DNA of 64,000 nucleotides, taken from the sequence record NC_135729.1; one strand, given 5' to 3'. This DNA comes from a phage. Positions 22,583 to 33,550 of this stretch are shown one piece after another; positions within the stretch are counted from its first letter, which is position 1; each line of letters starts with the position of its first letter. The notes beneath the pieces are model-generated. The model made no database searches. It was not told the origin of the DNA and worked only from the letters and a program-made list of their open reading frames with translations. A program made the translations under genes and the position numbers.

Positions 22583-22610
22583 AATAGAAAATCCCCGCCG
22601 AAGCGGGGGA
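22583..22610 (-). terminator. rho-independent terminator
   Basis: minus-strand CCCCGC-TTCG-GCGGGG hairpin followed by ATTTTCTATTT; same hairpin at 48721-48736. Confidence 0.65.
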
Positions 22611-23011: not shown

Positions 23012-24196
23012 TTAAGCTTTAGCTAAAATGGCGCTAAACTCTTCACCAAACTCTTTTACAATCTTCATCAGGTTTGGGTACGCTTTGATCAGTTGAGCAA
23101 CGATCTTGTCACGCCCTTTACCGATAAGCAAGGCATTTCCTAAGGCGTTAGGTTTCATCATCGCCATAAAGACTGAGAATACAAAATCTCGGTTCTCGTC
23201 CTTGAAATTTTCCCAAAGGAAATCGAGGAAGTTTGCCACACAGCTAACAAGATCTTCGTCAGAGATACTTGCATTTTCCATCATATTACGAATAGCGATA
23301 CAACCTTCAGACCCAAGAATCCACAAGATGTCTGGCTGCTTAGGCCCTACGTATTCTTTGCAACCCCCTGCCATAATCCGACCGATTTCCGGTAAATTGC
23401 GTTTCTTGGTGTGGTAGGTCCAGATCTCTACCGCTGCAGTGTGACCAATAGCACCTTGCAGAAGAACACGGGCCATAGCGTCAGAAATAATACCGCTGTC
23501 AAAATCGTGCAGGATATCAGATGCAGCAACCCAAGATCGCGGTGTGGCAAAAGATGGGCAATTAATCTCAGCCATAGCCTCATAATTATCAATAGCTGAC
23601 GGAACTCTTTTCAGATACCCAATTACAGAGGAGTGCACTCCATTAAGGAATGCGTAGTCCTCAATAAACACCTCTGCATTGCTTGTAACTTCTACAATGA
23701 TAAAACGGTTAGCCAGAGGGGCTTCAAGCGCCGAAAGAACCGCACCATCTGTAGAACGGTTACCTGCAGCTACAAAAACAGAGCCCTTAGGGAATGCATA
23801 GGTGCCGCACTTGTGGTCGAGCATAATTTGCATTGCAACCTTTTGCAGGTAACTATCTGCATGAGTAAGCTCATCCAGAAATATAATTCCGCTCCAGTCC
23901 GGATCTGCAGGCCAGAATTCTGGAATTGCAAACACTGTACGTGCAGTTCCATCCGCTTCTACAGGGATAGGTAGCCCAGATAAGTCGGCAGGATCTTTAT
24001 CTGACAGTCGCACGTCAACCAGGTTGTCATCTCGCTCACCGAACATATTATCGGCGATCTGCTTCATCACCTGGCTCTTCCCCACGCCCATTGGTCCTAA
24101 AATCAGGACAGATCGGTTATGACGTTGGGCAAACTGAATGATAGCTGGCAACTCACGGACAGTGATTTGACCACTTTCAAATACGTTTCTTGACAT
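23012..24196 (-). CDS. AAA+ ATPase, MoxR-like (AAA_5)
   Basis: Walker A LILGPMGVGKSQ; Walker B IIFLDELTHA; sensor-1-like VFVAAGN; LANRFIIVEV. Confidence 0.75.
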   Translation of the reverse strand: MSRNVFESGQITVRELPAIIQFAQRHNRSVLILGPMGVGKSQVMKQIADNMFGERDDNLVDVRLSDKDPADLSGLPIPVEADGTARTVFAIPEFWPADPDWSGIIFLDELTHADSYLQKVAMQIMLDHKCGTYAFPKGSVFVAAGNRSTDGAVLSALEAPLANRFIIVEVTSNAEVFIEDYAFLNGVHSSVIGYLKRVPSAIDNYEAMAEINCPSFATPRSWVAASDILHDFDSGIISDAMARVLLQGAIGHTAAVEIWTYHTKKRNLPEIGRIMAGGCKEYVGPKQPDILWILGSEGCIAIRNMMENASISDEDLVSCVANFLDFLWENFKDENRDFVFSVFMAMMKPNALGNALLIGKGRDKIVAQLIKAYPNLMKIVKEFGEEFSAILAKA

Positions 24197-25525: not shown

Positions 25526-25808
25526 TTGTCATTTTACATTCTTGAAATTTTAACACAAGACGGTGATTGTGTCTAGTGTCTAAAAAGATTTTTTCAACCA
25601 TCAGGCACACGGTATAACCGTCCATCTTGTTGACAACAAAATCTCCAGGATGAGGGAGGATGTCTCCCGGATTGGGGAAACATAGTCCACTCAGAAAGGC
25701 ATCGTCAGTGGTGGACTTAATAGATTTCCACACACTGTCTGCCTGAACATGTTCACCGACGTAATATACATTACCACATGCCTTCATCATAGTCAAACCC
25801 TCGCACAA
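25518..25808 (-). CDS. hypothetical protein
   Basis: 96-aa ORF. Confidence 0.35.
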   Translation of the reverse strand: MCEGLTMMKACGNVYYVGEHVQADSVWKSIKSTTDDAFLSGLCFPNPGDILPHPGDFVVNKMDGYTVCLMVEKIFLDTRHNHRLVLKFQECKMTIA

Positions 25809-26692
25809 ATTAAACTTGTATCAGTATACTTCTTTAATGGGTAAATATCCTGTCCATAGATGCAATCATTAAACACCTCATCTACCCAAAGGCTACACTT
25901 ATATCCCATCATTTCTAAAACGCCCATCTCTTCTTCGGTGAACTTATCACCGCTCTTGCAAGATGTCAATACCTCATTCTGTACTCTTGCTACCTCGAAG
26001 CGGTTATTGGCAATATCACTATTGGCAATCAAATACTCACCTAAAGGGTGTGCAGCATTAAAGATGCACAGTGGACGGTTGACGTAATAGTCTCCCGGTG
26101 TATAAAAATTGTTGAGATCCTTCACCAGAACATTCTTATCAGTCACTTCATTTATAACATCATGCATATCACACATCTTTATATGTTTGAGGATTCCATC
26201 CCCCATCACAAAATAAAAACTTGCTGAGACACTCTCGGCATAGATCTTACTAGATCCGTTGTAGTTGTATTTTACGCGAATGCTTACAGGGGTTTTGCCT
26301 GTCGCGTTAGCCATCATCCAAAGGAACGGAAGTTCAAACCTCTCCTCTGAGGAAACAAAAGGTGAAGTTGCCAGAGATCGGAAACCTCCAGAAAAGTTGA
26401 AAGTTACAGAGCCGCTCCGGCGATATGATACCGCATATTCTACTTTTATATCGACGTACCCATTGGAATAGGTGTGTCCTTCATTATCTAAATATGTCCA
26501 CTTATCAGATCCGGATACCAGCCTACGCTCAATAACCTTCATTACTATAGGAATTAGCGGGTTGGTACAAACCGATTTTGAAGTAGCTTTATCATCTAAA
26601 GCCTCGTAAATTGCAGAAAGGATGTCTCCAGCTGAAAGATTGGTTGTTATATCCTGTTGCCACCGCGTACTAAAACTGTTAAGATTTGCCAT
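25793..26692 (-). CDS. hypothetical protein (first gene of leftward operon)
   Basis: 299-aa ORF; GGAG RBS; directly downstream of the divergent promoter. Confidence 0.45.
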   Translation of the reverse strand: MANLNSFSTRWQQDITTNLSAGDILSAIYEALDDKATSKSVCTNPLIPIVMKVIERRLVSGSDKWTYLDNEGHTYSNGYVDIKVEYAVSYRRSGSVTFNFSGGFRSLATSPFVSSEERFELPFLWMMANATGKTPVSIRVKYNYNGSSKIYAESVSASFYFVMGDGILKHIKMCDMHDVINEVTDKNVLVKDLNNFYTPGDYYVNRPLCIFNAAHPLGEYLIANSDIANNRFEVARVQNEVLTSCKSGDKFTEEEMGVLEMMGYKCSLWVDEVFNDCIYGQDIYPLKKYTDTSLICARV

Positions 26693-26728
26693 GAGTGCTC
26701 CTATGTTAGTTTTCTTTCGAATGGGTGC

Positions 26729-26757
26729 ACTATATCGGAGATTTAGAGTAAAGTCAA
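26729..26757 (-). promoter_or_regulatory. sigma70-like promoter (leftward)
   Basis: minus strand TTGACT (plus 26752-26757) - 17 nt - TATAGT (plus 26729-26734). Confidence 0.45.
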
Positions 26758-26770
26758 CACGTTTTTGATG

Positions 26771-26799
26771 TTGACATCTGTTGAGACAATTGATAAGAT
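26771..26799 (+). promoter_or_regulatory. sigma70-like promoter (rightward)
   Basis: TTGACA (26771-26776) - 17 nt - TAAGAT (26794-26799); its -35 and the leftward -35 are the two arms of the inverted repeat GTCAACA-N9-TGTTGAC (26753-26776). Confidence 0.5.
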
Positions 26800-26830
26800 T
26801 TCTTCACTTACAGAGCACGAGAGACAACTC

Positions 26831-27808
26831 ATGAATCTTGAAAAATATTATACACCAGAAGAGTTAGAGCGCCTGCTCAAAAAATATAGACGCAAACAGA
26901 ATAATGCACGGAAACGAGATATAGAGTTCGACCTGTCGTGGGAAGAATACCTACTATTTGGTAAAAAACTTTTAGGGGAAGGGGTATGCGACTACACCCT
27001 TATACCTTTCGACATGCACACAGATGAAAACGGACTGGGAAATCCTTTCTATCCATCTCTGGAGCGGATAGATGATGAAGGTCCTTACGCAATTGATAAT
27101 TGTTGTGTGGTAGGGTTGAGGTGCAACGCTCTGAAGGACTGTCTGGTAGATAAAAAGACTGCAATATTGATAAAAGACAAAACTGATCGAAAAATTGTCC
27201 AGCAGATGATGCTCCACCTGAGCGAAGAGCGTATGGAGAAATTGAAAGGTGATTATACTTTCGAAGATTTCATCTTGCAATACGGGACAGAAGAAGATAA
27301 ACTAGCACTTTTTGACGAAGAGGAAGAAGATATGTCACCAATGCAGGACTTTAAAAATTTCATGGCTGATCGTGCAGCCAACAAACACATTTCAGATATC
27401 GTAAACGAAACTGTGACAGAAGAAATTGAAGAACAGAACTCTGAAGAGGAAAAAGAGCCTCAGGAGGTCGAAGAGGAGATTGCAGAAGAGGTTCCTGCAC
27501 TGCCTGATGATGTTGAGGTTGCTAAGGCTTACACTTTCTATTGTCAAACGTTCTACGATGCAGGTATGAAAGTTGATCTGTCGTTCAGCCAATTTAAGAG
27601 TTCATATATTCGCAAATGCTGTGCTTTAACTGGTGAACGTCTCGGAGCTGGACTTAAACCGCTGTTGGTGACCGACTGGAATAAAGGTTTCACTAAAGGA
27701 AACTTTATGGTAGTATCTCCAATTATGGAAAAAGCCATGACGGATCTTATGAAGACCACTCGCATGACAATGACTGAGTTGGCAGGTATTTTCAAACACG
27801 TTAAATAA
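26831..27808 (+). CDS. protein with two degenerate HNH-like (DRID-type) modules and an acidic linker
   Basis: N-module PSLERIDDEGPYAIDNCCVVGLRCNALKD and C-module KPLLVTDWNKGFTKGNFMVVSPIMEKAM both resemble [28 protein letters not shown] of the HNH endonuclease at 4306-4929; acidic stretch EEEEDMSP...EEIEEQNSEEEKEPQEVEEE; ATG at 26831 preferred over the TTG at 26765 that lies inside the promoter. Confidence 0.4.
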   Translation: MNLEKYYTPEELERLLKKYRRKQNNARKRDIEFDLSWEEYLLFGKKLLGEGVCDYTLIPFDMHTDENGLGNPFYPSLERIDDEGPYAIDNCCVVGLRCNALKDCLVDKKTAILIKDKTDRKIVQQMMLHLSEERMEKLKGDYTFEDFILQYGTEEDKLALFDEEEEDMSPMQDFKNFMADRAANKHISDIVNETVTEEIEEQNSEEEKEPQEVEEEIAEEVPALPDDVEVAKAYTFYCQTFYDAGMKVDLSFSQFKSSYIRKCCALTGERLGAGLKPLLVTDWNKGFTKGNFMVVSPIMEKAMTDLMKTTRMTMTELAGIFKHVK

Positions 27809-27820
27809 TGACAGGGGCCA

Positions 27821-29302
27821 ATGGCCCCTTCTGGAGTTTTAATGGATAGCAGAAGTTCAGAAATCGTTGCCTCACAGAAAGATGATGCCCTGAGAATGTT
27901 GCAGGCTGCACGTATGTATCTCCTTGAAAAGCTGCCGTTTTATGGCACACTGCTGTCAGGGTTGCAGTTCGTAGAAAACCACACATGGTGCTCCACCATG
28001 GCAACCGACCATAAACGCATCTATTACAGCCCTGAGTTCATTATGGGATTGGCTGATGAACGCAAGGCTATTCTTAAGGCCTCTCTAACTGACAAGCAGT
28101 TTGAGATGGCTGAGGTTTTCTATTCCCCCAAATCTGTGAAAGAGGTGGCCTTTCTTCTGTCGCATGAGGTGGGGCATATTATCTGTGATCACCTGGTCCG
28201 TGGTAAAAGCTTTGAGCCGGAACTGTTCAATATTGCTTGTGATCACGTTATCAACACAGGCCTTGTGGTTGACTTTAGCAAACCTCCTTGTGTTTTCTTC
28301 TCGAAGGGGAAAAGCACTACGTTCGTGAAAGGTAAGCCTTTTGGCTTCTTAGCCAGCTGCTACTGCGACATGAAGTTTCATGGATGGATTGCTGAGAACG
28401 TTTATGCAGTTCTTGATAAGCAAAGAGATCAGAATAACGGTAAAAGTAAGAGCGGTAAAGGTGAGAACTCTCAAGAAGATAAGCGACAAACCGATGATCA
28501 CATGAGTGGTAACGGTGGCACCAGTGATGATCTTGGAAAGGCTATGGGGTATGATCAGCCACAACCTGTAATCAGTCAATCTGATAAAGATCAGGCCATG
28601 CAGGACTCTGGTGACATGCTGGAGGCAGCAATGCAAGCTTCCGGAGGCCGTTGCCCTGAGGCGGTTCGTGAGTTTGTCAAGAATAGAGGTAAGCCTGTAA
28701 TTAATTATATAGACATCATCAAGCAACGCATGTTGTCTAAACGAAAGGCTGAACTGACCTACAGAAAACCTGGTCGCCGATCTGGGTCTTTGACCAGCAC
28801 AATGCGAAAAGTTGGGGCTATAAACAAGAACCAGCACGTTATTGTTCCTGGTCGTAATCCGGAAAACACCATAGATATTGTGGTAGCTTTAGACGTTTCT
28901 GGCTCGATCTCTCAAAGAACTTTAAAGAAAATGTTCAATGAAATCACCGGATTGTGCAATCTGTATAAAGAGTTTAAGGTTACAATGTTCTGTTGGTCAA
29001 CTGAAGTCGGAGAGGTTAAAGTATACACTCGCGGCAACATAGACGAGATGATCAACTATGAGGTACACTCAACATGGGGCACAACAGCTGCTTGCGTGTT
29101 CGAGTATCTGGATGCCAACATACCGAATGCAAAAGATGTCATCGTCCTGACCGACCTATACTTTGAGCATAACTTTGAACAAAAGGCTGTTGACAACAAG
29201 TGGAAAAAGTACGATACTTTATGGGTTCTCACCGAAGGGTATAATAAAAATTATATCCCTAGCTTTGGGAAAACTGTGGAATTAATCGAGTACGCTAAGT
29301 AA
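27821..29302 (+). CDS. putative metallopeptidase (HExxH) fused to vWA domain (COG3864/DUF2201-like, MoxR partner type)
   Basis: HExxH LLSHEVGHIICDH; vWA MIDAS motif VVALDVSGSIS (DxSxS); 493 aa. Confidence 0.7.
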   Translation: MAPSGVLMDSRSSEIVASQKDDALRMLQAARMYLLEKLPFYGTLLSGLQFVENHTWCSTMATDHKRIYYSPEFIMGLADERKAILKASLTDKQFEMAEVFYSPKSVKEVAFLLSHEVGHIICDHLVRGKSFEPELFNIACDHVINTGLVVDFSKPPCVFFSKGKSTTFVKGKPFGFLASCYCDMKFHGWIAENVYAVLDKQRDQNNGKSKSGKGENSQEDKRQTDDHMSGNGGTSDDLGKAMGYDQPQPVISQSDKDQAMQDSGDMLEAAMQASGGRCPEAVREFVKNRGKPVINYIDIIKQRMLSKRKAELTYRKPGRRSGSLTSTMRKVGAINKNQHVIVPGRNPENTIDIVVALDVSGSISQRTLKKMFNEITGLCNLYKEFKVTMFCWSTEVGEVKVYTRGNIDEMINYEVHSTWGTTAACVFEYLDANIPNAKDVIVLTDLYFEHNFEQKAVDNKWKKYDTLWVLTEGYNKNYIPSFGKTVELIEYAK

Positions 29303-33511: not shown

Positions 33512-33550
33512 TTATAAAAAGAAAGGGGCCGTCTGGCCCCTTTTTATTTG
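33511..33550. terminator. bidirectional rho-independent terminator between convergent operons
   Basis: GGGGCC-GTCT-GGCCCC hairpin (33525-33540) flanked by AAAAAGAAA upstream and TTTTTATTTG downstream. Confidence 0.7.

Follow-up and report, generated by a model that had tools for sequence, protein, structure and literature searches.

The window analysed here, a stretch of 64,000 nt of phage DNA (record NC_135729.1), contains a strand switch at 26692/26831, and the ORF list leaves 26693-26830 as the sole non-coding gap there. We compared a 2.2-kb query around this site with phage records and obtained 117 matching records at 90-98% identity, nearly all of them Vequintavirus (rV5-like coliphages). 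The gene order around the junction was the same in annotated relatives, and these matches identify the interval as the gene 10/gene 11 junction of a Vequintavirus, an rV5-like phage of E. coli. In the relatives, the leftward side carries gp10 ('putative alpha 1-3 fucosyltransferase'), small ORFs, a MoxR-like ATPase, a SleB-like hydrolase and rIIA/rIIB, and the rightward side carries gp11 ('Srd-like anti-sigma factor' or 'HNH endonuclease') and then gp12. The genes and unit ends that bear on the junction are as follows.

22593-22608, minus strand: intrinsic terminator, CCCCGCTTCGGCGGGG then ATTTTCTATT, equivalent to rV5 t003.
23012-24196, minus strand: MoxR-like AAA+ ATPase of the leftward unit (weak Pfam AAA match, PHROG 1297 'ATPase', annotation of relatives).
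25793-26692, minus strand: gp10 homologue, first gene of the leftward unit (ORF list, annotation of relatives).
26698-26702, minus strand: Shine-Dalgarno sequence AGGAG of gp10, 5 nt before the ATG at 26692-26690 (read from the sequence).
26831-27808, plus strand: gp11 homologue, Srd-like, first gene of the rightward unit (ORF list, PHROG, annotation of relatives).
27821-29302, plus strand: gp12, second gene of the rightward unit, with DUF2201_N metallopeptidase and DUF2201 VWA-like domains (Pfam).
33522-33543, no strand assigned: GC-rich hairpin between converging units, equivalent to the rV5 bidirectional terminator t026/t027.

The leftward unit likely ends at the terminator at 22593-22608 and the rightward unit at the hairpin at 33522-33543. 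Two presumably early units are thereby fixed, one of ~4.1 kb running leftward with the MoxR-like ATPase and one of ~6.7 kb running rightward with the Srd-like and VWA proteins. The first-pass annotation had called them the ATPase operon and the vWA operon; both proteins do lie in the units, but the first genes are gp10 and gp11 instead. MoxR-like AAA+ ATPases and DUF2201 metallopeptidase/VWA proteins usually act as partners. Here the ATPase (23012-24196, minus strand) and the DUF2201/VWA protein (27821-29302, plus strand) flank the divergent promoters on opposite sides, so a bidirectional cassette may co-express them early.

The gp10 homologue matched PHROG 12338 (unknown function), and the Pfam scan gave no match for it (25793-26692) or for gp11 (26831-27808). 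Labels for gp11 differ by record and include anti-sigma factor (Srd-like), HNH endonuclease, anti-termination protein and sigma-70 decoy; in PHROG it matched families named 'HNH endonuclease', 'endonuclease VII', 'decoy of host sigma70' and 'Srd', with most of the matches covering residues 13-120. Some records (e.g. navn, MN850642) start gp11 at TTG 26765, a codon inside the inverted repeat listed below, which would extend the coding sequence over a promoter. We rejected this start, because distant homologues align from residue 1-2 of the protein begun at ATG 26831 and because the TTG codon sits within the promoter; ATG 26831 is the likely start and TTG 26765 is probably an annotation error.

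Within the gap, two predicted sigma-70-type promoters face outward from abutting -35 boxes. Their elements are listed below, and conservation refers to a junction alignment of 16 sequences, made of 12 Vequintavirus genomes and 4 IMG/VR contigs that represent a sister clade (gp11 ~64% identical). The IMG/VR search found 6 related loci, enough for the sister clade and too few for a deep alignment.

26722, minus strand: predicted leftward start, an A 7 nt past the -10 hexamer, giving a 5' UTR of ~30 nt.
26729-26734, minus strand: -10 hexamer TATAGT of the leftward promoter, rV5 P010 (consensus scan; rV5 Table S4).
26735-26751, minus strand: 17-bp spacer of the leftward promoter; length 17 in 16/16 sequences, 12/17 columns variable.
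26752-26757, minus strand: -35 hexamer TTGACT of the leftward promoter (consensus scan; rV5 Table S4), invariant in 16/16.
26753-26775, no strand assigned: inverted repeat GTCAACA-N9-TGTTGAC, whose arms are bases -37 to -31 of both promoters.
26762-26766, minus strand: A5 tract (T5 on the plus strand), covering -40 to -44 of either promoter and retained in 16/16.
26771-26776, plus strand: -35 hexamer TTGACA of the rightward promoter, rV5 P011 (consensus scan; rV5 Table S4), invariant in 16/16.
26777-26793, plus strand: 17-bp spacer of the rightward promoter with an extended -10 TG at 26791-26792; length 17 in 16/16.
26794-26799, plus strand: -10 hexamer TAAGAT of the rightward promoter (consensus scan); TACGAT in rV5, FFH2 and Gotham.
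26806, plus strand: predicted rightward start, an A 7 nt past the -10 hexamer, giving a 5' UTR of ~25 nt.

The first-pass annotation had proposed these same hexamer pairs, TTGACT/TATAGT leftward and TTGACA/TAAGAT rightward, both with 17-nt spacers, and an independent promoter scan recovered them at 10/12 each against the sigma-70 consensus. By hexamer, the match was 5/6 for TTGACT, 6/6 for TTGACA, 5/6 for TATAGT and 4/6 for TAAGAT, which has the TG of an extended -10 beside it; both -10 hexamers have A at position 2 and T at position 6. The core elements, 26729-26757 (minus) and 26771-26799 (plus), do not overlap; the -35 hexamers are separated by 13 bp and the predicted starts by ~84 bp. A Markov-1 simulation put at ~1.6e-4 the probability that 138 bp contain sites scoring 10/12 or better on both strands; the pair therefore exceeds chance. 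Across the 64-kb window, 41 sites reached at least 10/12 against 15.1 ± 3.5 simulated (a 2.7-fold excess), and such sites ran with the local genes in 31 cases vs 6 against, the structural-gene block included. Lowering the threshold to 9/12 in a 6-kb scan gave 16 sites vs 11.6 expected; consensus scans return many false positives. The window-wide excess and co-orientation of sigma-70-like sites agree with the view of the rV5 authors that host-type promoters are distributed over the whole genome (Kropinski et al. 2013, Virol J 10:76).

A further site scoring 9/12, TTGCCA-17-TAAGAT with an extended -10 TG, was seen at 26657-26685 (plus strand) inside the gp10 coding sequence and pointing toward gp11; if active, it would transcribe over the palindrome. 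The discriminators of the two main promoters also differ, the leftward one being the GC-rich GCACCC whereas the rightward one reads TTCTTC, and the promoters may differ in sensitivity to supercoiling or ppGpp.

Both divergent promoters are already known, having been published as predictions for rV5, where Table S4 lists P010 (6636..6681, minus strand, CAAAAACGTG TTGACT TTACTCTAAATCTCCGA TATAGT) and P011 (6685..6713, plus strand, TTGACA...TGATACGAT) (Kropinski et al. 2013, Virol J 10:76). The promoter feature 'P11' is annotated in GenBank DQ832317 (rV5), and both 29-bp promoters are annotated in MT682716 (phage Gotham). The rV5 genome is 96-98% identical and the locus is the same: the -35 hexamer, spacer length and -10 hexamer of P010 and the -35 hexamer of P011 are shared, and the 34-bp core with the perfect palindrome is identical. 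Two differences were found: the -10 hexamer of P011 is TACGAT in rV5 vs TAAGAT here, and the rV5 paper, which predicted the promoters, is silent on the inverted repeat between P010 and P011 (Kropinski et al. 2013). A literature search for transcription start site, transcriptome or 5'-end mapping data on rV5-like phages found none, and the single paper pairing Vequintavirinae with RNA-seq had sequenced a T5-like phage. Since 5'-end mapping was not found, we used comparative evidence to judge whether the promoters are real, and this evidence is now added to promoters formerly predicted by consensus alone.

Among the 12 Vequintavirus genomes, 1/24 hexamer columns vs 20/34 spacer columns were variable (Fisher p = 1.5e-5). 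The single change lies in the -10 hexamers (1/12 columns variable within the genus), and the leftward TATAGT was kept in 12/12 genomes, with TATTCT in the sister clade. Spacer variability matched that of third codon positions in the flanking genes (40-52%), a drift close to neutral, and the hexamers resembled second codon positions. The rightward spacer had 8/17 variable columns and kept its extended -10 TG in 16/16 sequences. Between the -35 hexamers, 4/13 columns were variable, fewer than in the promoter spacers, and the separation was 13 bp, rarely 14, in Vequintavirus and the sister clade. The leftward 5' UTR region (26693-26728) was far more conserved than the promoter spacers, with 5/36 columns variable. 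Judged from this alignment, spacers fixed in length and free in sequence, together with kept hexamers, are the signature of functional sigma-70 promoters. The divergent-promoter reading of the first-pass annotation is thus well supported, both by the conservation among the 16 relatives and by the earlier prediction of P010 and P011.

The tract between the -35 boxes was T5, or T6 in two of the 16 sequences. The leftward strand reads CAAAAACGTG-TTGACT, and the rightward promoter sees T5. At -45..-36, A4 or longer occurred in 12/26 published rV5 promoters vs 3.2% of background 10-mers, and T-tracts occurred in 2/26. Given this position and the recurrence of A-tracts before rV5 -35 boxes, the A5 tract is most likely an UP-like element, mainly for the leftward promoter. 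The UP element of Ross, Estrem and Gourse is an A/T-rich contact of alpha-CTD upstream of the -35 box, and the proximal subsite of the Estrem/Gourse consensus lies at -46..-41. The tract here resembles it in that A5 stands just upstream of the leftward -35 box on the non-template strand, as similar tracts do in about half of the rV5 promoters. It differs in lying at -44..-40, ~2 bp nearer the -35 box than the consensus proximal subsite, and in belonging equally to the rightward promoter, which sees it as T5.

We consider it very probable that the junction consists of two ordinary sigma-70 promoters placed back to back, with the palindrome as a by-product and no dedicated regulator needed. The host RNA polymerase holoenzyme would use both promoters right after infection, the early timing being inferred. 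From TTGACT-17-TATAGT, transcription would start near 26722 and proceed through gp10 and the MoxR-like ATPase to the terminator at ~22600. From TTGACA-17-TGaTAAGAT, it would start near 26806 and cover the Srd-like gp11 and the VWA/metallopeptidase gp12 on the way toward the terminator at ~33530. The A5 tract between the boxes would act as an UP-like A-tract for the leftward promoter.

The perfect inverted repeat that the first-pass annotation had pointed out was confirmed at 26753-26775, as GTCAACA (26753-26759), a 9-nt spacer CGTTTTTGA (26760-26768) and TGTTGAC (26769-26775); the end formerly given, 26776, is the last A of TTGACA. The exact palindrome occurred once in the 64 kb (0 expected from shuffled sequence), and near-copies, allowing three mismatches or fewer, were no more frequent in the same window than by chance (4 vs 4.1 expected). 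Two back-to-back TTGAC boxes on opposite strands make 5-bp arms automatic, and the arms extend to 7 bp because TG stands at -37/-36 in both promoters. No dinucleotide stands before TTGAC more often in the window than TG (30/192 vs 7% expected, p = 4e-5), TG also precedes TTGAC in 8/26 published rV5 promoters, and the bases at -37/-36 are common to 10-11% of random pairs of those promoters. About 10% of this phage's promoter pairs would carry 7-bp arms. With TG so common and pairs so often sharing these bases, the perfection of the palindrome is not beyond chance.

Variation within the repeat was consistent with this account. At the seventh arm base (26769), 74 phage records had T and 31 had G, and the sister clade had A. 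Contig L016 carried a C-to-T change at 26758; in neither case did the opposite arm show a compensating change. Sequences L015 and L018, with T6 for T5, have a shifted half-site spacing. The G at -36 was nearly invariant (15/16 and 16/16 for the two promoters), and the 6-bp arms are thus conserved. These results indicate that the inverted repeat is a by-product of two preferred extended -35 motifs (TGTTGAC) standing back to back around an A-tract. What is conserved is a pair of outward promoters with abutting -35 boxes and not a dyad of fixed geometry. More generally, back-to-back -35 boxes make inverted repeats something to expect at divergent junctions, and an operator reading needs conservation beyond the hexamers.

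Other genera of the Vequintavirinae keep parts of this arrangement. Upstream of the gp11 homologue, Seuna-, Mydo-, Henuna- and Avunavirus likewise have a rightward TTGACA. At the gp11 junction of Seuna-, Mydo- and Avunavirus, a strong promoter points rightward and a candidate back to back with it points leftward, with 3 bp between the hexamers in place of 13 (AATCAA-GTG-TTGACA; AGTCAA-CGC-TTGACA). The leftward candidates were weak in Seuna- and Mydovirus (8/12); at the same junction none was found in NINP13076 and none in the right position in Hena1. In three Seunavirus sequences (L006, L007 and L008), the rightward promoter has AAAAATTTTGAAA ahead of it, about 20-10 nt before TTGACA (roughly -55 to -43). 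This stretch is similar to a complete UP-element consensus, and it shares bases with the leftward candidate's spacer.

The two promoters could also be coupled without a regulator, either by competition, with partly exclusive firing, or by supercoiling-driven mutual stimulation, and we hold this as a tentative possibility. The -40 to -60 contact zone of each polymerase is the -35 box and spacer of the other promoter, and this makes interference or supercoiling coupling plausible. The 13 bp between the hexamers, the ~84 bp between predicted starts and the single A5/T5 tract serving both promoters point the same way, as does the retention of the 13-bp (rarely 14-bp) separation in Vequintavirus and the sister clade. 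For divergent promoters placed back to back, topological coupling has been documented (PMC5175336). Like other back-to-back divergent pairs (Beck and Warren 1988; dmp Po/Pr, PMC5175336), the promoters here face outward from abutting upstream regions and share no hexamers, and coupling by negative supercoiling would be possible at this junction, dmp Po/Pr being a topologically coupled pair. Unlike dmp Po/Pr, the present pair belongs to a lytic phage, consists of two sigma-70-type promoters with similar predicted strengths, and has no regulator gene taking part. The argument for coupling is one of geometry, however, and the 3-bp separation in other genera means that no particular spacing is essential. 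Coupling would in any case refine the explanation by two ordinary promoters rather than replace it.

The lambda PR/PRM pair is an example of partly exclusive firing. PR and PRM start 82 bp apart, and polymerase bound at PR reportedly slows open-complex formation at PRM. The -35 region of PR reads GTGTTGACT; within the lambda interval CI and Cro bind at three operators (OR1-3), and PRM needs activation. The present junction is alike in its divergent back-to-back layout, in the distance between starts (~84 bp predicted here vs ~82 bp) and in containing GTGTTGACT. It differs in that no operator-like conservation, site repeats or repressor candidate were found at the junction, in the 64-kb window and among 16 neighbouring proteins, respectively.

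It is very unlikely that only one of the two sites is a working promoter, most plausibly the rightward one, which is conserved in the subfamily, with the other a chance or vestigial site and the leftward genes transcribed from elsewhere. Consensus scans do over-predict, and the leftward candidates of other genera are weak or missing, as described above. Against this, Vequintavirus and the sister clade share one and the same leftward -35 hexamer and an almost constant -10 hexamer; the leftward spacer stays at 17 bp although 12 of its 17 columns vary; and the leftward site carries the A-tract and TG typical of this phage. Moreover, no upstream transcript can enter gp10, since the gap is the sole non-coding stretch upstream and the genes beyond it run in the opposite direction.

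The first-pass annotation had further suggested that the palindrome could be an operator for a dimeric regulator, and this part is not supported. Under that reading, a phage- or host-encoded dimer bound to the repeat would occlude both -35 boxes and so shut off or coordinate both units, an economical switch with one site over both boxes. The perfect 7-N9-7 repeat is unique in the window, its 6-bp arms GTCAAC/GTTGAC are kept in 15/16 relatives, the sister clade included, and the region between the hexamers varies less than the promoter spacers. Were the -35 boxes and the G at -36 part of a protein-binding site as well, they would be just as invariant, and their conservation by itself does not speak against a superimposed operator. 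Against an operator, the extra arm bases change by lineage without compensation, the T5/T6 indels alter the half-site spacing, near-copies do not recur above chance in the window, and other genera keep the divergent layout with a different dyad geometry. No half-site conservation was found beyond what the promoters need, the constant parts being the -35 hexamers and the G at -36, and the -35 boxes, this G and the A-tract explain the conserved positions fully. Pfam scans found no DNA-binding domain in 16 neighbouring proteins, ten small ORFs and gp10-gp12 among them; most of the 16 are small orphans, so that this is weak evidence. We therefore regard an operator as very improbable. A narrower version, in which the GTCAAC-N11-GTTGAC core with its A5/T5 centre is the site of a host factor, or of a small early protein of the phage that has escaped recognition, which covers both -35 boxes and silences the two units together, seems to us more doubtful still; if the core were such a site, the 13-bp hexamer separation of Vequintavirus (3 bp in sister genera) would have evolved for that factor.

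We give almost no credence to an action of the repeat through nucleic-acid structure (cruciform, RNA hairpin or terminator), for although the terminator scan reported an 8-pair stem on the minus strand, the stem has 3 GC pairs and no T-run follows the repeat on either strand, the DNA hairpin is weak and not significant (-5.4 kcal/mol, z = -1.66; 14/200 shuffles fold as well), the repeat lies upstream of both predicted starts with no gene converging on it, and the arm changes are uncompensated. At a permissive threshold, Rfam gave only sub-threshold noise elsewhere in 26300-27200.

The significance of two back-to-back sigma-70 promoters at this junction is mostly one of annotation. For Vequintavirus phages that are therapeutic candidates, the junction would also offer a compact, conserved bidirectional early promoter cassette of ~80 bp for the insertion of a reporter or payload.

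A second divergent junction, between rV5 genes 81 and 82 (rV5_ev168, LR694610, 603-620), showed a back-to-back TTTCAA-GTG-TTGACA, the same 3-bp layout as the Seunavirus gp11 junction. Its rightward TTGACA had no good -10 hexamer at 16-18 bp, and of the two directions the rV5 paper gave a promoter for the leftward one alone, P081 (Kropinski et al. 2013). Among the matches to the 2.2-kb query were 16 records named 'Campylobacter phage', with identities up to 98%, of which A141 at least is marked UNVERIFIED. The MG0656xx records (H1-H3, H5, H6, H26, H27, H50) were 96-98% identical, like rV5-like coliphages, and the Campylobacter-named records are probably mislabelled or contaminant assemblies. 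Finally, a second perfect 7-nt inverted repeat, CATGAGT/ACTCATG at 26690-26696 and 26827-26833, bounds the intergenic region. It arises from ACTCATG at the starts of both genes and looks fortuitous, because relatives carry a 4-bp insertion and substitutions beside the left copy.
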